A stretch of 64,000 nucleotides of DNA from Promethearchaeota archaeon (GCA_016839555.1 JAEOUA010000003.1:320001-384000), one strand, 5' to 3'. Positions 1 to 10,533 are shown, counted from the stretch's first letter. The notes: a model not told the origin generated them from the letters alone. Numbers and translations are program-made.

Positions 1-1003
1 AAGATTCATTTGCTAACGCAGTCATATAATCATAGGGATCAGCACCTTCTTCTTCTGCTTGTTGGCATTCAACTTGTCCTACTTGGTCTCTAAACCATCG
101 AAGCACAGCGCCTGTGGTGAATACGCTTGCTTCTTGAACCCATGCACCAGGGATTGCATGGCAACTACATAATACCCGCTTTTCTGGATCTAATTTGGGT
201 TCTTTTAAATATGCTAATATAAAACTTCCTGTACCCGTGGTACATTTGATATCACCTGCTTTACTCACACCTACCCCTAACGCTGCAGATTGCTGATCTC
301 CTGCGCCCGTAATCACTAAAGTTTTTTTATCAAAAGAAGTTTCATCAGTAACAATTTCTCCAATATCTACGCCACTTTCGACAGGTTCTGGCATCTTATC
401 GAGATCAATTTCTAATTTGGACGCAATATCTTCAGAATATCTTAGATTATTAATATCAAACAACATAGTTCTACTTAGATTACTAAAATCACTATAAAAT
501 TTCCCTGTAAGTTTATTAATAATAAAATCAGACACTAAGAGAAATTTATGAGTTTTGTTATATATTTCTGGTTTATTATCTTTAAACCACAAGATTTTTG
601 TGGCAGAAAAATAGGGATCAATGGTAAGCCCTGTAGTTTTATATATCTTATCAATTCCAACTTTTTGTTTAATAAATTCTACTTGATCTGTGGTTCTTCT
701 ATCTTGCCATACTAATGCATTATGTAGTGGATTACCTTCTTTATCAACAGGAACTATTGTCTCACGCTGATTAGTTATTGATAGACTTACGATTTCAGTA
801 CTATCAATCCCACTTTTTTTTAAAGCAGAATCAATAGTTTCTTTAATGGATTTCCACCATATATCTGCGTTCTGCTCCACGTAGGATGGTTTTGGATAAT
901 GGCTAGCCCATTCACGATAATCCCAAGCTAAAATAGTCCCCGAAATATCAAAAATATATGTGCGACACCCAGTAGTACCTAAATCTAAAGCAGCAACAAA
1001 CAT
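1..1003 (-). CDS. FGGY-family carbohydrate kinase (xylulokinase/glycerol kinase-like), 3' end truncated by window edge
   Basis: Not in ORF track. Manual translation from ATG at 1003 gives MFVAALDLGTTGCRTYIFD, then NQRET, WQDRRT, GAGDQQSAALG and GTGSF, all FGGY motifs. Confidence 0.9.
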   Translation of the reverse strand, partial: MFVAALDLGTTGCRTYIFDISGTILAWDYREWASHYPKPSYVEQNADIWWKSIKETIDSALKKSGIDSTEIVSLSITNQRETIVPVDKEGNPLHNALVWQDRRTTDQVEFIKQKVGIDKIYKTTGLTIDPYFSATKILWFKDNKPEIYNKTHKFLLVSDFIINKLTGKFYSDFSNLSRTMLFDINNLRYSEDIASKLEIDLDKMPEPVESGVDIGEIVTDETSFDKKTLVITGAGDQQSAALGVGVSKAGDIKCTTGTGSFILAYLKEPKLDPEKRVLCSCHAIPGAWVQEASVFTTGAVLRWFRDQVGQVECQQAEEEGADPYDYMTALANES

Positions 1004-1248: not shown

Positions 1249-1668
1249 TTGATTGTTTTGTCAAATAAAGATACACTATCAAAATTAAAAGCAATTATTC
1301 AAGATTTTACAGATTCTCAAAGCGATGTCCAAGGTCAAATAGTAATAACCTATCCAGGAGGAGTCCCCATAGTTAATACTTGGAAGGGAGGAAAAATTGA
1401 TCCCATTTTAGTTGGAGCTATTTCTGCTGCGGTTAAGCTCACCTTTCGATATCTCTGTGAGCAATTGCGGAAAGGAATATTAAAAAAATTATTTATAAAT
1501 AGCGATTATGGACGAGTAATCATCCAGGATGCTGGTCCGAAAGCAATTTTAACTTCAATAATTGATAAAGAAGCAGATCTATTTAGAATTGCATTTGGTA
1601 TGACCAATCTTGCTATTGAACTCGAGAAATTATTAGAAGATTTCACATTGGAGGTGTCTGATATATAA
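1249..1668 (+). CDS. Roadblock/LC7 (MglB/LAMTOR-like) domain protein
   Basis: 139 aa with the roadblock pattern: N-terminal helix, IVITYPGGVPIV, helix GAISAAV..LRKG, then FINSDYGRVIIQDAGPKAILTSI and a C-terminal helix. Confidence 0.85.
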   Translation: MIVLSNKDTLSKLKAIIQDFTDSQSDVQGQIVITYPGGVPIVNTWKGGKIDPILVGAISAAVKLTFRYLCEQLRKGILKKLFINSDYGRVIIQDAGPKAILTSIIDKEADLFRIAFGMTNLAIELEKLLEDFTLEVSDI

Positions 1669-1670
1669 AG

Positions 1671-2663
1671 ATGAGTGAGATCATTCAAGAGTATAATTTA
1701 CTCGGGTATTTACAAGAAATAGAAAAAGTTACAGATTTAAATGGATGTTTTTTCATTAATGCGAAGGATGATATTGTAATTGAATCAACGATACCATTTA
1801 GAGTTCCAGATGAAATTCTATGGGAAATAGGGGTTTTACGCGACACTTTTAGGCAATTTTCTAATGGTATAAACCACGGGAAACTTAATGAACTTATGAT
1901 TGAAGGGAGTAAGGGTTATATTTTATTATATGATATTCCTCCTCATTTATTATTGCTTGCTCTAGGATCAGATGATATGAATTTATCATATGTAAGACTC
2001 GCGATGATTGATATTTTAAAAAGGATTAGAGAAGAGATCGCAAAAATCGGAGATAACATTTTAAAAATTCCCGGAAAAGACTTAGGAGCATTAGGAGTAA
2101 AAGAGGGGATTGTACCTACTCTTGTAACTATCACTGAACCTGTAGAAACTCAACCACAACCTCCTAGTATTAAGGTGCCCCCTAAGATTGAAGCTGTTGA
2201 AAAAGAGCCTGTAATATCTCAAGCCGAGATGGAACCAATAGAGCCAGAACAACCTATAGCAGAAAAAGTTGAAATAGGAATTATAAAAGCTGAATTAGTT
2301 GAATCAATTGAGGAACCTTCTTTTGAAGAAAAATTACCCACATTCGAAATAGTTGAAGAAAGCCTAGAAGCTATGATAAAATCATTAGAAATTAAGGAAT
2401 TGAAAGAGAGATACCAAACACTTGGATCAATATTTAATGGATTGAAAGCTCAACTTGAAGAAATTACTGGAAATGAATTAAGTAAATTACTTGAACAATT
2501 AAAAGATGCGATTTTATTAAATATAGGTACTTCTCTTGCCCTTTTTGATATTTCAAAAGCCGAAAAAGAGTTAAATAAATTAAATAGAAAATTGGGTATT
2601 GCAGAAATACAACAATATAAAAATAGAATAGATAATTGGTCAAGTAGAATTATAAAAATATGA
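1671..2663 (+). CDS. Roadblock-like domain + Pro/Glu-rich linker + C-terminal helical domain
   Basis: N-terminal ~125 aa contain GKLNELMIEGSKGYILLYDIPPHLLLLALG..NLSYVRL (roadblock). Low-complexity P/E linker, then ~95 aa amphipathic helices ending RIDNWSSRI. Confidence 0.75.
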   Translation: MSEIIQEYNLLGYLQEIEKVTDLNGCFFINAKDDIVIESTIPFRVPDEILWEIGVLRDTFRQFSNGINHGKLNELMIEGSKGYILLYDIPPHLLLLALGSDDMNLSYVRLAMIDILKRIREEIAKIGDNILKIPGKDLGALGVKEGIVPTLVTITEPVETQPQPPSIKVPPKIEAVEKEPVISQAEMEPIEPEQPIAEKVEIGIIKAELVESIEEPSFEEKLPTFEIVEESLEAMIKSLEIKELKERYQTLGSIFNGLKAQLEEITGNELSKLLEQLKDAILLNIGTSLALFDISKAEKELNKLNRKLGIAEIQQYKNRIDNWSSRIIKI

Positions 2664-2683
2664 AGAGGTGAAAAATAGAAAAT

Positions 2684-3181
2684 ATGAGTTTGATGATATA
2701 TACAATTGATGGGAAGGATATTGTACCTGTTAATGATATTAAATTAAAAGAAGATAAAATCTATATAATAATTGATATACATGCGAAACGTCCGAAAATA
2801 TGGATTTGGAGTGGGGCAAACTCGAGTATGATAGATAAATATCATGCAGGCGTGAGTGCAACCAAAATTAAATCCAGAAAAAAATTATATGGAGCAAGTA
2901 TTGAAGTAGTGGAAAGTGGAGCAGAACCAGAACAATTTCCCAATTTGTCTGAGGCACAACTAATAGAAGCGACTGAAGAAGAATTTGAAGAAAAATTACG
3001 TATATTTGAACCAAAAATAGAAGAAATATCAGCTTCTCAAGAAATGCCTGCAATTAAATCAGAAATGATGGCTCAAACAGATAGAGAGAGCAAGAATAAA
3101 TTGAAAAAATTTTTGAGTGAAATTTCAAGAGATCTAAATAATATTAAACAAAAAATAGATGATTTTATCCAAAATATATAA
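2684..3181 (+). CDS. Single gelsolin-repeat protein with C-terminal coiled coil
   Basis: Gelsolin consensus: IYIIID..IWIWSGANSS..KYHAGVSATKI..IEVVESGAEPEQF. Heptad-like C-terminus. Confidence 0.8.
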   Translation: MSLMIYTIDGKDIVPVNDIKLKEDKIYIIIDIHAKRPKIWIWSGANSSMIDKYHAGVSATKIKSRKKLYGASIEVVESGAEPEQFPNLSEAQLIEATEEEFEEKLRIFEPKIEEISASQEMPAIKSEMMAQTDRESKNKLKKFLSEISRDLNNIKQKIDDFIQNI

Positions 3182-3217
3182 AATATTAAATAATAAAAAA
3201 TCTAAAAGGTAAATAAA

Positions 3218-4537
3218 ATGATTGATGCAGGAGTAGCTTTAACAACCGAATTTGATGGTTATAAAGCAGGTAGGATTGTTATTAAGGAAGCATTAGGAGG
3301 TATTAGTCTAAAACCAAAATTAGCGATCCTAGCTGTGGACTCTTTATCACGTGTACAATATAATTATAATGAAGTATTAAAAGGTGTAAGGGAAGAGCTT
3401 GGTTCAGATGTAACTTTAATTGGTAGTACTGCTAATGGTATTTTAGTAAACAATAGATATGCATTTAGAAGTGTTGGGTTAATGTTAATAGGTGGTGATA
3501 TAAATATTGATATTTCTTTTAATTACCCTGAATCTAAATTGGATTATGAGAATATCGCAAAATCGATATATCAAAGAAGCAGTGGATTACTCCCAAAAGA
3601 AAATCGATTCATGTTGATGTTTCAAGATGGATATAAATTTCCACCTGAGGTATTTAAGAAGCAAGAAATGTTAAATATGAGAATTATATCGTTAATGTCT
3701 GGATTAGTATCTCGATTCTTTAAAAAGCAACTAGATGATTTTAAAGAAGATGGAATGGGGTTGACAAGTGCTCAAGAATTGTTAGAAAGCTTATATAATA
3801 AAGGTTTTGATTTACCGATAGTGGGAAATGTTGCTACTGATGTTCGAAACTATGAATCTGTTGAATTTTATAACGATCAAATTGGAGATGACAATATTGT
3901 TGGGGTTATTTTATCTGGAGAAGGAGCGACAAAATTTGGATTTGGATTTGGTGCAGGAGCAGAATCTACAGGAAAAACCTTAAAGCCAACTAAAAAAATT
4001 GGTGGCTTTTTCCTAAAAATTGATGGAAAACCGGCATTAGAAGGATTTTGTAATGCAGCAAGTATAAAATTAGAATCATTAGAGCAATTAAGACCATACG
4101 GGTACCAAAATCCTTATGTTTCTTTAGGATTTAGAGAGAAAAGTAATGGAGAGGAGATTATTCATCTTTCAGGGCTTCTTACAAACCCTAATTTATCAAA
4201 TCTGGTAACCACTAGTTTCCCATTTAATTATAAAATACCCGAAGAAATTGAGATTTTTAGGAGCAATATTAAAGTACTTAAAAGAACTACGGAAAGTGCG
4301 ATAAATCAAGCTATAGAAAATATCTCTAAACCCAAATTTCTGCTTGGATTTGATTGTTTTAATAGGGCCATGTCTTATGGAGATATGATGCCTGAAATAA
4401 TTGAAAAAATCGATGATACTGTTGGTAAAGATCTCCCTCGAATGATTTTTGGTGCAGGTGGTGAAATATTTGGTAAGAAAGATTTAGGATACTATAATAA
4501 TAATATGACATTTGTTACTTTAGCGGGTGGAGAATAA
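3218..4537 (+). CDS. FIST N/FIST C domain sensory protein
   Basis: LIGSTANG, IDGKPALE, FDCFNR and C-terminal GGEIFG..YNNNMTFVTLAGG are typical FIST motifs. Confidence 0.8.
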   Translation: MIDAGVALTTEFDGYKAGRIVIKEALGGISLKPKLAILAVDSLSRVQYNYNEVLKGVREELGSDVTLIGSTANGILVNNRYAFRSVGLMLIGGDINIDISFNYPESKLDYENIAKSIYQRSSGLLPKENRFMLMFQDGYKFPPEVFKKQEMLNMRIISLMSGLVSRFFKKQLDDFKEDGMGLTSAQELLESLYNKGFDLPIVGNVATDVRNYESVEFYNDQIGDDNIVGVILSGEGATKFGFGFGAGAESTGKTLKPTKKIGGFFLKIDGKPALEGFCNAASIKLESLEQLRPYGYQNPYVSLGFREKSNGEEIIHLSGLLTNPNLSNLVTTSFPFNYKIPEEIEIFRSNIKVLKRTTESAINQAIENISKPKFLLGFDCFNRAMSYGDMMPEIIEKIDDTVGKDLPRMIFGAGGEIFGKKDLGYYNNNMTFVTLAGGE

Positions 4538-4761
4538 CTAATCTCTTTCCCATCAAAAAGAATTTTTTTTATTCTTATTTTAAATTTCTTTTTTATTTTT
4601 ATAATATTAGTTTAATTTTAAAAAATTTATATTTTAACCTTCGAAGTCACTAATTTATTTAAAATAATTAATATCTATTAATTATTTTTAAATTTATCTA
4701 TTTCATATCATTTAAATATCCTTATTATCTTTTCTTTATACAAAATTAAGGGTATGATTAA

Positions 4762-5937
4762 ATGAAAATTGATGATATTTTAGAAAAAGGACTACAAGAT
4801 TTCAAAAAGGAAGATCAAACTGGCGTAAAAAATGATTTATTTAAGGCAATCAAGGAATCCCTAATGCATCAGTTTAAAGGATGTGATTTATACAGGCAAA
4901 TATGTAAACAGCAGAATTTCAATCCTAATACAGATTTAAAAAGTTTAGATGATTTAGCTATGATACCCTACATAACGACAGCTAATTTTAAGCAAAAGAA
5001 AGGATCTCCCAAGAAGTTCTTAACTGTACCTGAAAGTGAAATTCAAATCTGGTCGAGATCAACAGGCACATCAGGAGATCCATCTATTGTAGGGAGAGAT
5101 CATACAAATATAGTAAGATATGTTAATATGTTTAGTAATGTAATAGAAGATGTTGGATTAGACAATTACTATTGGAGTCTTATGTTTATTCCTGAACCCC
5201 AAAAAGAATATAGCATTGATGATAAAATTAAAGACCCAACGATCATGTTCTCGCTAATGATGCATTTTGTGAATACATCTGAAGAGAAGGTGTTTTGCTT
5301 GAAGATGCCCAGCCCAGAAGAAATGAAACAAGGGAAAAAAATTGAATTTGATGCACAAAAAACATTCGGTTTCTTAAATTCAAATCCATCACAAAAAGGA
5401 ATAGGGTGGATAACTGGTTCGGTACCTTTAATGTATAAGATTCTATCTGGGTATCACCAACAAACAGGGCAGACTTTTAATGTAGGTAAAAAATCAGTTA
5501 TTTTAACAGGAGGAGGATGGAAAACATTTCAGGGAGATGCAATTTCTCCTGAAGAATTCAGAAGAGATATGGCTAAAATCCTTGGGATCTCTGAAAAGAA
5601 TGTGAGAGATATCTATAGTTTTTCCGAATCAGATGTTATTTTTGTAGAATGTGAAGAACATAATAAACATACTTATCCTTGGCAAGATATAATTGTTAGG
5701 GATGTGGAAACCTTAGAACCTGTAGAAATAGGAGAAAAAGGCTTAGCAAATCTAATAAATCCTCTTGCCCATAGTTATGCCGGCGTATCAATCCTCCAAG
5801 ATGATATCATACGAATTGTAAGTGAAGATGACTGTCCATGTGGAAGAAAGGGTAAGATTATTGAAGTTATTGGTAGAGCAGAAGGCGCGGAAGCAAAAGG
5901 TTGTGGAGTACAATTAGCAGATGAAACTGCAACATAA
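4762..5937 (+). CDS. luxE: LuxE/PaaK-like acyl-protein synthetase (long-chain fatty acid ligase)
   Basis: SRSTGTSGDPS loop, TGGGWK, DIYSFSE, CPCGRKG and C-terminal AEAKGCG carrying the acyl-acceptor Cys. Confidence 0.85.
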   Translation: MKIDDILEKGLQDFKKEDQTGVKNDLFKAIKESLMHQFKGCDLYRQICKQQNFNPNTDLKSLDDLAMIPYITTANFKQKKGSPKKFLTVPESEIQIWSRSTGTSGDPSIVGRDHTNIVRYVNMFSNVIEDVGLDNYYWSLMFIPEPQKEYSIDDKIKDPTIMFSLMMHFVNTSEEKVFCLKMPSPEEMKQGKKIEFDAQKTFGFLNSNPSQKGIGWITGSVPLMYKILSGYHQQTGQTFNVGKKSVILTGGGWKTFQGDAISPEEFRRDMAKILGISEKNVRDIYSFSESDVIFVECEEHNKHTYPWQDIIVRDVETLEPVEIGEKGLANLINPLAHSYAGVSILQDDIIRIVSEDDCPCGRKGKIIEVIGRAEGAEAKGCGVQLADETAT

Positions 5938-5952
5938 TTTTTTTTTTTTTTT
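5938..5952 (+). terminator. Oligo(T) archaeal terminator-like tract
   Basis: 15 consecutive T immediately after the luxE stop codon. Confidence 0.55.
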
Positions 5953-6057
5953 AATTAAAGAGAATTTTCTATACATTGTTGAAACTAAAATCTTTTTTTC
6001 ATTTTATTTTATATTTATTAAAGGATATTATTAATATTATTATAAAGTGAATTAAGA

Positions 6058-7770
6058 TTGAAGAGAAAATTAAAAATACCGGGATTTATTTTTAAGCCGG
6101 TCTATTCTGAAAATACTACAAAAGAAATAGTAAAACGACAAGATGATGTATTAGAATTCGATTTTCCTATATTCGATAAAAAGACTGTATTAGATACTGC
6201 AGAAAAACTAGCTTTAAGAAAAAGAAGAGCTCATGATAGGGATTTGAATGAATTATTTGAAATAATGGATCAAGTAGGTGACTTATGGCTTGATCCTAAT
6301 TATGACCTTAGAAAAGAGGTCTTAGAAGTCATTCCTATGATGACGGGACAATCAAGAGAATTATGTGAAATCGAATTTTTAGGGACAATTAGACTTTGGA
6401 ATAAGAAGAACTCGGAATTACAATTAAAAGGCGAAATAGGAGGAAAAGAATACTTAGAAGATTGGGTTCAGAGAGGAACTGCAAGAATGCATGCACAACC
6501 TAGAGGAGTTGTCCTTCATAATTTGGCGGGAAATTCATTCGGTTTGGGTCCTACCTCTCTATCATATGGTTTAATAACTAAAAATGTAAATCTAATAAAA
6601 CTTTCCCATCAAGAACCCTATGTATCTGTTAAATTATGTGAATCTATTGTAGAAGTAGATAAGAAATTATCAAAAGAAATAGCTGCATTTTATTGGAAAG
6701 GAAGTAGAGGAGATATTTATGACGATCTATTTAATTCCGGTAATATTAATTGCGTTCTCGCATGGGGTGCCATCCAATCAATCGAAGATATTAGAAGGAG
6801 AGCGAATCGTTATGGTATAAAAATAATAGATAATGGTCCTAAACTTTCCTTCAGTGTTCTTTCAGAAGATACTTTTAACAATAAAAATATTATGCAAGAA
6901 ATAGCTCAAAAAATAGCAATCGATGTAGTATACTGGAATCAGAGAGCGTGTTTAAGCCCCAGAGTTATTTATATTATAGATAAGCCTCATAAATCAGCAA
7001 TTTCGAATAATATAAATAATAATTTATCAAAAGACAATAATAATGAATTATTGAATGATTCATCAATAAACACCTTATTTGCAGATTCTATTAATACAAT
7101 TTTTCATACTAATGAATCTGGACGTTATGATATGAGTATTCTCATGAAACGTTCCTTAAAAATGCTCAGATATAGTTTTTCTGAATTATCTGCCATGGGA
7201 TTTGCAAAAATGTTAGCAAATGGGCTAAGAAATGCTGACCAGATGCTTCCGCGTGCAAATTTGACCCAAACAGATAATTTAGAAATGCAAAGAAAACGAG
7301 AATATTTCTTTATAAATTACGTTACTCAAAAAAGAGCAATAATTTTATATCCTCCTAAAAATAAATTAGATTGGACTGTTGTATTCATGCGGACCTTACC
7401 TAATCTGAAGGAAATAAATATGTGCCAAGATAGATTTGTGATTTGTTGTAGAATCTCAAGTATTCAAGATTTAATCTATTCAATAAGAAAACAAGAGTTA
7501 CAACAATATTTACAAACTGTTGCTATATATGGTAATGATAATTTTGTAAAGGATGTTGCCGAAGAACTGTCAATTTTAGGCGCATTTAGATTTCCAAGGG
7601 CAGGAGAGCATAATTTGAATGACTTCGGTCTTCCATGGGATGGTAAATATGTTTTGCAAGATATGATAAGATGGTGTTATATTTGTTTTCCTGAAGAGCA
7701 ACCCATGGGAAATAATAATAAACAGAGCTCACTTTTTAAAGGAAAAACCTATCCTGAAAGAAATCAATAA
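6058..7770 (+). CDS. luxC: LuxC-like acyl-CoA reductase (ALDH superfamily) with Asn-rich insertion
   Basis: PRGVVLHNLAGN, AWGA, GPKLSF, QRACLSP (Cys298), YLQTV and PWDG. Adjacent to luxE. Confidence 0.85.
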   Translation: MKRKLKIPGFIFKPVYSENTTKEIVKRQDDVLEFDFPIFDKKTVLDTAEKLALRKRRAHDRDLNELFEIMDQVGDLWLDPNYDLRKEVLEVIPMMTGQSRELCEIEFLGTIRLWNKKNSELQLKGEIGGKEYLEDWVQRGTARMHAQPRGVVLHNLAGNSFGLGPTSLSYGLITKNVNLIKLSHQEPYVSVKLCESIVEVDKKLSKEIAAFYWKGSRGDIYDDLFNSGNINCVLAWGAIQSIEDIRRRANRYGIKIIDNGPKLSFSVLSEDTFNNKNIMQEIAQKIAIDVVYWNQRACLSPRVIYIIDKPHKSAISNNINNNLSKDNNNELLNDSSINTLFADSINTIFHTNESGRYDMSILMKRSLKMLRYSFSELSAMGFAKMLANGLRNADQMLPRANLTQTDNLEMQRKREYFFINYVTQKRAIILYPPKNKLDWTVVFMRTLPNLKEINMCQDRFVICCRISSIQDLIYSIRKQELQQYLQTVAIYGNDNFVKDVAEELSILGAFRFPRAGEHNLNDFGLPWDGKYVLQDMIRWCYICFPEEQPMGNNNKQSSLFKGKTYPERNQ

Positions 7771-7802: not shown

Positions 7803-9623
7803 TTATACTAATAATACATCTAAAAATTTTTCTATATAGTGAGATTGTCCCTCTTTTTTGTAATTAAAAATTATTTTTATATTAATCATTTTGGGATTAG
7901 TCCCTCTATCAGTTTTTTTTTCAAAATTATATTTTAAAATAAGATTCTGGTTTGGCTCTAATTTCATCCCTCGTTCTTCTTGATTTTCACTCGAAATGTT
8001 GAATATTTTAACAGGGTATTTAATATCTATATTTAAATTTTCGATTAAAACTCCAGAGATATTACGAATATGAATAAATAATTTTATGTCATAATCATCA
8101 GACCCTTCTAATTTTTCAGAGATCTTCCATTTCTTCAAAAATAAAAGATCTTCAACCTCAAAAGCGGATGAGGTATCAGCGGCTATAATATTATTAGATA
8201 TTATTGCATTCAAATCTCCTTTTTCTATGAGTTTTTCTATATAAGGTGTAAATTTTTCTTCATTTATATGAAATTTTTCAGATATTTCTTTAATATTAAT
8301 AGGCCCCTCTACTAATTTAGCTTCTATCCATTTTTTTACTTTTGAAAAACTAAGTTCGGGTTTTTTCTCTAACATAAAATCTAATAATAATTTTCGTTTC
8401 CTCTCCGAGTCTCTGTTATCAATGAAATCAATCTCATTTAGTATTTGATAACAATGTAAATATATATTATCTTGTAAGTTCGCTTTTAATATTGATTTTA
8501 ATTTAATGTAATTCTGTGAGTTTAAATTCTCTAATATTTTTTTAGTTAACTTAGAGATTAAAGAATTCATTAATTTCGGATTGGATAAATTTATTTTTTT
8601 GATGACATTATTTAAAGTTCTAATCATAGCATCTGAATCAGGATTAATTATTTTAAATAGGTGATAAAACCGCTCAAATTCATTTTTAATTACTGAAGTT
8701 TTCAGAATTTCTTCAATTGGATCCACATTGTCTAACTCACCGTTTTCTATGACTTGGAATAATGCATCATCAAATATTCCTTTATGATACTCTAAAATTT
8801 CTTCAATTATATCCTCTATTGCCTCTCTTACTAAATGATCTTCATAATCTAATAGATGGAGTAAATCTCTTGACAATGGTTTAATTAAATCTTTTCTATG
8901 AAGTCCCAATTTTCCAATTAAAAAGATTATATTCTCTTGAGTTGGCCATTCATTATTCAGAAGTGAATTTATTAATTTTTTAAGATCCTCAACTGTATAT
9001 GTTTTTATAAATAATCTTAATAACAAATCCAAACCTTCTTTTTTTACATCAACATCTTTTTCACTATAAAGTATTTTTAATTGTTCTTCAAAGCCTTTAA
9101 TAAAAGTTGGTTTATTAATAAGAACCTCATCTAAGAACTGGATTATTTCCATCCTTACATTCCAGGATTCGTCTGTTAAACTGGATATCAGTGCTTTAAT
9201 CATCCTTTTTTCTTTATTTGTTAGGTTATAATATAATTTTATTAAAAATCCAACAACTTTCTCTCTAATCCCTAATTCAAAATCTTCAATCTTAGATGTG
9301 AGTAAATCTATTTCTTTATAAATAGATTCCATTTCTCGATTAATTTTTTTCGAGAAAATTTTTATTGCTAAATCCTGAATCGTTTCATCATAATCATCAA
9401 TCCAAGGTTTTATCTTTTCAAGCTGTTCATCTGATAAAAATGCTCCTTTTTTTTGAAGTTCCGTGATTCCTTCTAAGATCTGTGGAAATGATGTATAATT
9501 ATCTTCATTCAGTAAAGAAACTAGGTCATTTAAGGCACTTTGAAATTCTCCTAATTCCATTTTTTTTTTAATGTCAGTTAAATCGATCTCTGTAATTTCT
9601 ATCAACTCCTTTTTAATAGTCAC
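7803..9623 (-). CDS. HEAT-repeat protein with PCI-like winged helix and C-terminal Ig-like beta domain
   Basis: HEAT motifs LTDESWNVR, EKDVDVK and YEDHLVREA. Winged helix INIKEISEKF..IEKLIEKGDLNAII. Beta-rich C-terminus IHIRNISG..KLEPNQ. Confidence 0.7.
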   Translation of the reverse strand: MTIKKELIEITEIDLTDIKKKMELGEFQSALNDLVSLLNEDNYTSFPQILEGITELQKKGAFLSDEQLEKIKPWIDDYDETIQDLAIKIFSKKINREMESIYKEIDLLTSKIEDFELGIREKVVGFLIKLYYNLTNKEKRMIKALISSLTDESWNVRMEIIQFLDEVLINKPTFIKGFEEQLKILYSEKDVDVKKEGLDLLLRLFIKTYTVEDLKKLINSLLNNEWPTQENIIFLIGKLGLHRKDLIKPLSRDLLHLLDYEDHLVREAIEDIIEEILEYHKGIFDDALFQVIENGELDNVDPIEEILKTSVIKNEFERFYHLFKIINPDSDAMIRTLNNVIKKINLSNPKLMNSLISKLTKKILENLNSQNYIKLKSILKANLQDNIYLHCYQILNEIDFIDNRDSERKRKLLLDFMLEKKPELSFSKVKKWIEAKLVEGPINIKEISEKFHINEEKFTPYIEKLIEKGDLNAIISNNIIAADTSSAFEVEDLLFLKKWKISEKLEGSDDYDIKLFIHIRNISGVLIENLNIDIKYPVKIFNISSENQEERGMKLEPNQNLILKYNFEKKTDRGTNPKMINIKIIFNYKKEGQSHYIEKFLDVLLV

Positions 9624-9742
9624 TTTTCTTTATTTTTTCTTAAAACAATTTAGAATTGTTTTATTTTTTATAGAATTTATATTAATTATTGTTTTTCTAT
9701 AAAGAATAAAAAATTCGAAAATTAAATTTTTCCTATTTTGTT

Positions 9743-10438
9743 TTATTTTTTATTTTTTTCATAGCCACATTTAGGGCATATAAGTTTTCCAAACCCTATA
9801 CGATATCCTTCTAATTCTTTCATAAAAGAACCACATATGGGACATTTTGGAGCATAATTGGGAAACCATTGACCTTTTACATTCGGTTGTTCTTTTAAAA
9901 AGTTAGAAAAGCGAATTCTTTCAAGAAATTTATCAGCAATATTAAAGTCCTTGCTCTCTTCAGCAATAGATTTTCCTTGAGCATATAATAATGTCAGAAA
10001 TGAAATATTATTTGGATTATTGAGTAATGAAAGTGTTTTAATGATACTTTCTTTTTTATGAATTGAAAATAATTTAACTAATTCTAATGGTGCTAACGCA
10101 ACCAAAACAGCCATTATTTTATCATTTTTTTTGACTTTCTGAAAAAGAAACTGATACATTCTCCTTTGTTTATCTTGTGCCCACAGGAAATTCCAGTTTT
10201 GAATTGTATAATCTTTGTTATGGGGATCAATGATTCTTTTAATTGTTTTGTAAAAAGTATAGTGGGAATATTCCTTAATATTTATATTAAGATCAGTGAA
10301 AAAATTTGATCCTATAATTGGATACTTATCAAATATATTCAGAATAGACATCAAGCGTACCTTAGAAAGAGTTTCTGTCTGTAATCTATCCCACGGTGTA
10401 TATGTTAAGAGATTCCAATATAAGGTTTGATTTTTCAT
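9743..10438 (-). CDS. Hypothetical protein with C-terminal zinc ribbon
   Basis: 231 aa ORF ending CPICG..CPKCG. Confidence 0.7.
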   Translation of the reverse strand: MKNQTLYWNLLTYTPWDRLQTETLSKVRLMSILNIFDKYPIIGSNFFTDLNINIKEYSHYTFYKTIKRIIDPHNKDYTIQNWNFLWAQDKQRRMYQFLFQKVKKNDKIMAVLVALAPLELVKLFSIHKKESIIKTLSLLNNPNNISFLTLLYAQGKSIAEESKDFNIADKFLERIRFSNFLKEQPNVKGQWFPNYAPKCPICGSFMKELEGYRIGFGKLICPKCGYEKNKK

Positions 10439-10533
10439 TTTTTTGTTTTACAATCAATTATAATAATATTTTAAATTAGATGATCAGTAAAAAATCACAT
10501 TCTCAAGTTCATTTTCTATTTTAAAAATCTCAT

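Follow-up and report, generated by a model that had tools for sequence, protein, structure and literature searches.

A conserved roadblock-roadblock-gelsolin-FIST operon in Lokiarchaeia and its putative link to the actin skeleton

The actin skeleton of Asgard archaea is dynamic and comes with gelsolins and profilins; the signals that control it are a gap that the gene cluster described here may help to fill. The cluster lies at positions 1249–4537 of a 64,000-nucleotide (nt) stretch of DNA from a Promethearchaeota archaeon (GCA_016839555.1, JAEOUA010000003.1:320001-384000), which is called the window below. It joins a gelsolin, a pair of roadblock proteins and a sensor-type protein in one operon. 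The four open reading frames (ORFs), Robl1, Robl2, Gel and FIST, are co-oriented on the plus strand and separated by 2, 20 and 36 nt. These gaps had been given in a first-pass annotation of the sequence, and the ORF coordinates agree with it. Its domain calls for all four products also hold in Pfam searches, profile comparisons and AlphaFold2 (AF2) folds. Its restriction of the unit to four genes has to be given up: LuxE, LuxC and a HEAT protein travel along, and the full cluster is Robl1, Robl2, Gel and FIST, followed by LuxE, LuxC and the HEAT protein. The stretch 1249–4537 fits an operon of four co-transcribed genes that is part of a wider accessory cluster in the Lokiarchaeia (Promethearchaeia). 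The locus comprises, with protein lengths in amino acids (aa):

1249–1668, plus strand: Robl1, a canonical Roadblock/LC7 protein, 139 aa from the TTG at 1249 or 136 aa from the TTG at 1258
1671–2663, plus strand: Robl2, a divergent roadblock protein with linker and helical tail, 330 aa
2346–2660, plus strand: predicted five-helix C-terminal domain of Robl2, residues 226–330 (AF2 model)
2684–3181, plus strand: Gel, a single gelsolin domain with linker and C-terminal helix, 165 aa
3218–4537, plus strand: FIST, a stand-alone FIST_N plus FIST_C protein, 439 aa (Pfam)
4538–4761, no strand: AT-rich spacer of 224 nt with oligo-T runs directly behind FIST, where the operon probably ends and the LuxE promoter probably lies
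4762–5937, plus strand: LuxE-like acyl-protein synthetase (Pfam LuxE, 2e-49; synteny)
6058–7770, plus strand: LuxC-like acyl-CoA reductase (Pfam LuxC, 3e-71)
7803–9623, minus strand: HEAT/Adaptin_N-like protein, 606 aa, convergent on LuxC (Adaptin_N 2.5e-7, below the cut-off)
1004–1248, no strand: AT-rich divergent intergenic region of 245 nt (GC content ~0.24), presumed operon promoter region
2–1003, minus strand: FGGY/glycerol-kinase-like gene, the divergent neighbour 5′ of Robl1

For the analysis of synteny, 61 relatives were searched for Gel orthologues, and the 6-kb flanks of those located were searched with the proteins of the window. Loss of gene order in relatives had been named in advance as grounds for refutation; the order was found to be kept. 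Robl1-Robl2-Gel-FIST occurs in G001, G005, G008, G009, G012, G014, G020, G022, G027, G029 and G035, all from one family (f1) and from at least six genera. G011 has the same cluster with Robl1 cut off by the contig end. Wherever the contig reaches, the f1 loci continue with LuxE-LuxC and then the convergent HEAT gene. G047, of family f2, has the rearranged yet clustered order LuxC-HEAT-Robl1-Robl2-Gel-FIST. The arrangement is beyond chance: more than 14 genomes, from at least eight genera, share this gene order and close packing. Intergenic distances were determined for 13 orthologous loci:

Robl1 to Robl2: −8 to 20 nt
Robl2 to Gel: 2 to 44 nt, except for the split Robl2 of G047 (320 nt)
Gel to FIST: 21 to 89 nt
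FIST to LuxE: 115 to 307 nt

Runs of 5–14 T are present within 90 nt past the FIST stop codon (12 of 12 orthologous loci). The spacing and these T-runs are consistent with joint transcription of the four genes and a transcript of its own for LuxE-LuxC.

Full-length orthologues of Gel and of FIST occur in the same 15 of the 61 relatives, and FIST without Gel additionally in G049 and G060. Of the 17 genomes with FIST, 16 encode a LuxC orthologue; the remaining one is G035, a genome of 68% completeness. Presence varies even between members of one genus: the cluster is present in G000 (the genome under study), G001 and G005 and was not found in G004 and G006, which are 97% and 98% complete. A survey of 400 genomes recovered the FIST orthologue in 17 of 134 f1 genomes, G000 not counted. 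The shared patchy pattern therefore identifies the cluster as an accessory unit, whose genes are retained or lost together. G014 carries a second, decayed copy (G014:C14:32910-45206), 15 kb from the intact one. In this copy the Gel paralogue and the HEAT gene are intact, but FIST is reduced to a fragment of 80 aa, interrupted by stops, and LuxC to one of 83 aa.

Robl1 as a single sequence stays below the Pfam cut-off for Robl_LC7 (E = 0.02). A profile of 12 orthologues matches Roadblock3 of Ca. Prometheoarchaeum syntrophicum MK-D1, a solved structure (PDB:9jue), over nearly its full length (E = 5e-16 over 119 positions). This sequence profile assigns Robl1 to the Roadblock/LC7/MglB superfamily. 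Identities among Robl1 orthologues range from 51% to 79%. The second TTG, at 1258, gives an N-terminus (MSN...) that is colinear with the orthologues and is probably the start; most orthologues also use a TTG.

Robl2 had no match in Pfam, and its profile was only weakly similar to roadblock structures (7f8m, E = 2e-3). The AF2 model, built on 40 homologues, predicts a roadblock fold with the pattern alpha-beta-beta-alpha-beta-beta-beta(-alpha) for residues 10–130 (pLDDT ~90; domain ~1–132), a disordered linker rich in proline and glutamate (~141–225) and a confident five-helix domain (226–327). In Foldseek, the N-terminal domain matched 9jue with E = 5e-7 and TMt 0.83. The match to MglB (VIA) had a Z of 15.8 and a root-mean-square deviation (rmsd) of 2.5 over 125 residues, and LAMTOR subunits were also found by structural search. 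On the basis of its modelled fold, the N-terminal domain of Robl2 belongs to the Roadblock/LC7/MglB superfamily. A profilin-like reading of the roadblock domains was rejected as their primary assignment, with profilins at Z ~10 versus 13–16 for roadblocks.

Robl1 and Robl2 probably form a heterodimer, by analogy with MglB/MglC or LAMTOR pairs. This is suggested by their translational coupling, as the distance between the genes is −8 to 20 nt. A complex prediction of Robl1 and Robl2 with Gel as partner gave scores of 0.16 and 0.09, with the mark set at 0.32, and speaks neither for binding nor against it. In G047 (L043 5078–5970) and G200 (L080 6944–8025), the roadblock part and the tail part of Robl2 are separate ORFs that differ in frame, through a frameshift or a genuine split.

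Gel scored 20.5 bits as a single sequence against the Pfam family Gelsolin, which has a cut-off of 21. The profile of its orthologues matched 2DGel3 of Thorarchaeota with E = 7e-12, and CapG and gelsolin with ~1e-5. A 165-aa protein without a gelsolin fold would have spoken against the first-pass annotation; AF2 and Foldseek confirm the fold. Residues 1–90 are modelled as a gelsolin fold (pLDDT ~90), followed by a linker that is disordered, variable and acidic and by a C-terminal helix (127–164) that is amphipathic and conserved. Foldseek matched fragmin, the gelsolin domains G1 and G4 and ProGel with a probability of 1.00, including complexes of gelsolin G1 with actin. The superposition with ProGel had a TMt of 0.76 and an rmsd of 2.0. 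According to the model, Gel carries a gelsolin homology domain, the fold in which five to six strands surround a long helix. This long helix is the best-conserved segment, with Y53, G56, V57, A59, T60 and K63 invariant, and its conservation is compatible with a conserved binding surface and says no more than that.

The 55 Gel homologues all come from Promethearchaeota. Members of a second Gel-like paralogue family (~175–188 aa; G002–G005, G012 and G014) had none of the cluster genes within 6 kb. Actins are encoded in the genome, at C1:435605-436717 and C7:297278-298387. Mini-gelsolins of Thor- and Lokiarchaeota regulate actin in vitro (PMC7444086), and in L. ossiferum five homologues of gelsolin were found in co-precipitates of Lokiactin (PMC13716822). 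Like the Asgard mini-gelsolins ProGel, 1DGelX and 2DGel, Gel has a single gelsolin homology domain, and like 1DGelX it has a helical C-terminal extension (Akil et al. 2020, PMC7444086). Unlike 1DGelX, the protein has only 165 aa, and the extension consists of an acidic linker and a helix of ~38 residues instead of the large coiled-coil domain X. Accordingly, the profile of a 409-aa 1DGelX-like paralogue aligned with Gel over the gelsolin domain only, and the 1DGelX architecture was not recovered.

FIST is a single-copy gene in this genome. The protein is above the Pfam cut-offs with FIST_N (56.9 bits, cut-off 23.2; E = 3e-15) and FIST_C (32.1 bits, cut-off 28.5; E = 1e-7). No solved relative was detectable by sequence; NosP had an E of 0.065. 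LuxE (168.7 bits) and LuxC (240.8 bits) are also above the Pfam cut-offs, and the pair is far under the NCBIfam equivalog cut-offs (130 versus 550 bits and 114 versus 750 bits). The two genes have no luciferase context and accompany the operon in every locus long enough to include them. They resemble the LuxC-LuxE fatty acid reductase of luminous bacteria (PMC9157457) in that LuxE-like and LuxC-like genes are adjacent; they differ from it in being tied to FIST and roadblock genes. The open-access literature searched yielded no paper that links FIST with roadblock proteins or with LuxE.

Some loci have the cluster without the gelsolin. G049 encodes Robl1-Robl2-FIST-LuxE-LuxC-HEAT, with Robl2 directly abutting FIST. 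G060 (family f7) encodes a 258-aa HEAT-like protein, FIST, LuxE, LuxC, Robl1 and a short, tail-less Robl2, again with no gelsolin; the gap between FIST and LuxE is 43 nt. In G183 (family f6), a HEAT-like protein is followed by FIST-LuxE-LuxC end to end, with the FIST stop and the LuxE ORF abutting. The first-pass annotation had treated the gelsolin as part of the module, and a place in the conserved core does not survive the Gel-free clusters of Robl1, Robl2, FIST, LuxE and LuxC in G049 and G060. FIST is tied more tightly to LuxE/LuxC and to Robl2 than to Gel. Since G049, G060 and G183 do without it, Gel looks like a later, lineage-specific addition within f1 and G047.

An older context of FIST and roadblock became visible in other Asgard families. 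FIST proteins of ~450 aa were found by the 400-genome survey in 27 of 31 genomes of family f13, the Heimdallarchaeaceae, and in 18 of 22 genomes of family f16. The f13 operon encodes a KaiC-like ATPase (310 aa), a roadblock protein (119 aa), FIST, a Ras-like GTPase (195 aa) and a 106-aa protein. The operon of f16, the second family, encodes a GTPase, a KaiC-like ATPase, a 155-aa protein, FIST and a major facilitator superfamily transporter. Their positions are:

L074 6705–10313: f13 operon of Ca. Heimdallarchaeum aukensis (G075), tightly packed
L076 5863–10492: f16 operon

The profile of the FIST-adjacent roadblock of Heimdallarchaeaceae aligned with Robl2 at 94% in hhalign (E = 1e-7 over 102 columns) and with Robl1 at 19%. 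A single Heimdall roadblock sequence searched against the genome under study singled out neither Robl1 nor Robl2; the profile comparison did so. Because the Heimdall profile matches Robl2 and not Robl1, the Robl2-type roadblock and FIST would be the old unit and Robl1 an added canonical roadblock. The Robl2-FIST pair appears to descend from an archaeal KaiC-roadblock-FIST signalling cassette. Common to both is a Robl2-related roadblock beside a FIST protein of ~440 aa in a tight operon. Unlike the Heimdall cassette, which includes a Ras-like GTPase, the Loki locus has neither a KaiC-like ATPase nor a GTPase. It adds the canonical roadblock, the tail of Robl2, Gel between Robl2 and FIST, and LuxE/LuxC downstream. 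No KaiC-like ATPase was found in the window or in the orthologous loci. The only match to the Heimdall KaiC in this genome is a double-domain protein on contig C5; a single-domain KaiC partner was not found there.

The tail of Robl2 is a domain of its own. Its profile found it in 145 representative proteins. It forms the very C-terminal end of nearly all of them, and some contain 3–6 copies in tandem. The protein atlas had no usable match. The wide structural search returned a designed helical repeat alone, whose Z of 9.3 is below the meaningful level for helical bundles. Pfam annotation of 76 other tail-domain proteins gave no consistent partner family; Apolipoprotein-like domains were counted six times, TrmB three times, and BAR and MIP-T3 once each. 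In the genome under study, the profile search found one other bearer, a 615-aa protein on contig C10, whose C-terminal domain resembles the Robl2 tail (E = 6e-11; hhalign 90%). Its gene lies 2.2 kb upstream of the gene for the 409-aa 1DGelX-like gelsolin, which is the nearest paralogue of Gel in the genome:

G000:C10:286000-302000, ORF 8635–10479, minus strand: 615-aa tail-domain protein (profile match)
G000:C10:286000-302000, ORF 5219–6445, minus strand: 409-aa 1DGelX-like gelsolin (gelsolin domain)

Of 21 f1 genomes, at least 19, from 12 genera, have the tail-domain gene 1–3 kb upstream of the gelsolin gene and in the same orientation. The tail domain and a gelsolin protein are thus co-located at a second place, independently of the operon. 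This is a hint and not a proof, because two genes on the opposite strand intervene, coding for a CDP-alcohol phosphatidyltransferase and an unknown protein.

The many small GTPases and roadblock proteins of Asgard archaea cannot be paired with their partners by genome layout. The genome under study has 63 Ras-like matches, and none of those on the contig lies closer than 82 kb. The absence of a GTPase had been put forward as a feature of the operon. It stands for the locus itself, as the 64-kb window contains no Ras-like GTPase. It is not a distinguishing feature, as unlinked GTPase and roadblock genes are the norm in Lokiarchaeia; in MK-D1, GTPase genes are generally located outside operons with roadblock genes (Tran et al. 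2024, PMC10933270). Around 25 orthologous loci also had no Ras-like GTPase, with the exception of G020. Only there, a 953-aa Ras/Roc GTPase with leucine-rich repeats (LRR) is encoded divergently upstream of Robl1 (L034 1391–4249, minus strand). An LRR protein is also located near the G060 cluster (L052 11250–12200). Owing to the Loki norm, and since the ancestral-type cassette carries a GTPase, the missing gene is no evidence for GTPase independence. The roadblocks probably act with a trans-encoded GTPase.

The evidence is best explained by a Loki signalling platform that derives from the roadblock-FIST cassette and has gained an output on the actin side; a probability of about 45% is assigned to this reading. 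FIST would be the input and bind a small ligand, possibly a carboxylic acid or aldehyde related to LuxE/LuxC. The Robl1/Robl2 dimer would be the platform and act on a small GTPase encoded elsewhere, among the Ras-like matches. Gel would be the lineage-specific output, binding Lokiactin monomers or filament ends near the platform. In the Loki lineage, the KaiC and GTPase genes would have gone from the locus, and Robl1 stands beside Robl2, translationally coupled to it. Robl2 has a flexible linker and a 100-aa helical tail, and between Robl2 and FIST stands a mini-gelsolin that likewise has a linker and, in addition, an amphipathic helix. We infer the heterodimer, ligand sensing, the use of a GTPase, actin binding and a contact of Gel with the other proteins. 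The first-pass annotation had proposed a module that couples roadblocks, and perhaps sensing by FIST, to actin: the operon and the domains are real, and the coupling to actin keeps its putative status. A more explicit version is a long shot: FIST senses a small molecule, perhaps the acid or aldehyde of LuxE/LuxC, and, through the tailed Robl1/Robl2 heterodimer of a rebuilt KaiC-roadblock-FIST cassette, steers the place or time at which a tethered mini-gelsolin caps or severs Lokiactin filaments.

The cluster offers four small, soluble proteins as a testable candidate link from sensing to the archaeal actin skeleton, with a roadblock-FIST pair apparently tied by descent to the GTPase-carrying cassettes of the Heimdall type. 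If the link between sensor and actin is true, genomes would for the first time offer a way into the regulation of actin dynamics in archaea, and a gelsolin under the control of FIST would be a forerunner, in prokaryotes, of actin remodelling governed by signals. If the link fails, the cluster is still a Loki-specific roadblock-FIST module joined to a LuxE/LuxC acid reductase.

Several observations weigh against a signalling platform with an output on actin. The clusters of G049, G060 and G183 contain no gelsolin; therefore, the module works without one, and its primary role may be unconnected with actin. The aspartate of the type II calcium site of gelsolin G1 seems to be replaced in Gel, an exchange that is uninformative as to whether Gel binds actin. 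The orthologue of the GTPase in the Heimdall operon was not singled out in the genome, where the best matches are 31–37% identical and many have equal scores. The interrupted neighbourhood of tail domain and gelsolin on contig C10 could simply be inherited synteny in one family. An interaction among the four proteins, or of any of them with actin, is a putative link.

The main rival is a module that serves LuxE/LuxC, with the gelsolin at its periphery. LuxE and LuxC would reduce an acid to an aldehyde, FIST and the roadblocks would sense or scaffold, and the gelsolin would be a late passenger. FIST-LuxE-LuxC is the most widely kept sub-block in the Lokiarchaeia, contiguous in G183 and with the short gap in G060. 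LuxC orthologues follow the phyletic pattern of FIST, both enzymes are far above their Pfam cut-offs, and Gel is missing from the clusters of G049 and G060. However, Heimdallarchaeaceae and f16 have roadblock-FIST without LuxE/LuxC, beside KaiC and a GTPase, and the pair is therefore a signalling unit in itself. In f1, the spacer between FIST and LuxE is 115–307 nt long and contains T-runs, whereas Gel is packed tightly inside the operon. No fatty acid reductase is known to need roadblock or FIST partners (PMC9157457). A mainly metabolic unit is doubtful on balance.

Signalling could also proceed without a GTPase, in line with the first-pass annotation, if the roadblock heterodimer itself coupled sensing by FIST directly to actin remodelling by the gelsolin. 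Roadblock proteins can bind partners other than GTPases, for example dynein LC7. The lack of a GTPase gene in the window and in about 25 orthologous loci, with one exception, speaks for this, and both Robl2 and Gel have long flexible linkers that end in conserved helical elements. Against it, a Ras-like GTPase belongs to the homologous cassettes elsewhere among the Asgard archaea, 63 Ras-like matches exist in the genome, and in G020 the Ras/Roc-LRR GTPase is a direct neighbour of Robl1. Loki GTPases are, moreover, generally unlinked to their roadblocks (PMC10933270). This alternative is unlikely. That the four genes are neighbours without a common function is highly improbable: archaeal genomes do hold mixed operons and no biochemical or predicted interface joins the four products, but order, spacing and translational coupling are kept across at least eight genera at 40–80% identity, Gel and FIST have an identical patchy presence and absence in 61 genomes, and in G047 the genes have been rearranged without being dispersed.

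A signalling platform with an actin-side output would resemble the MglA/MglB system, the Ragulator platforms and the conservons (CvnA-D) in its roadblock-fold dimer, which in these systems is often a heterodimer of paralogues, next to a sensor component. Unlike in these, no cognate GTPase gene is adjacent at the Loki locus. The sensor is FIST and not a histidine kinase as in actinobacterial conservons, and a link to gelsolin is not known for any of them. Three other roadblock ORFs of ~340–355 aa in the genome (C5:602667, C7:160807 and C10:90113) lie a few kb from Ras-like GTPase matches (C5:600456, C7:162091 and C10:81675, respectively); they were without the Robl2 tail domain in the profile search.

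The HEAT gene was present in the loci that reach far enough, those of G005, G012, G014, G020, G008, G009 and G049. In G047, it is co-oriented with the other genes and located between LuxC and Robl1. G060 and G183 have an unrelated-looking HEAT-like protein of ~260 aa directly upstream of FIST, with 44% identity between the two genomes.

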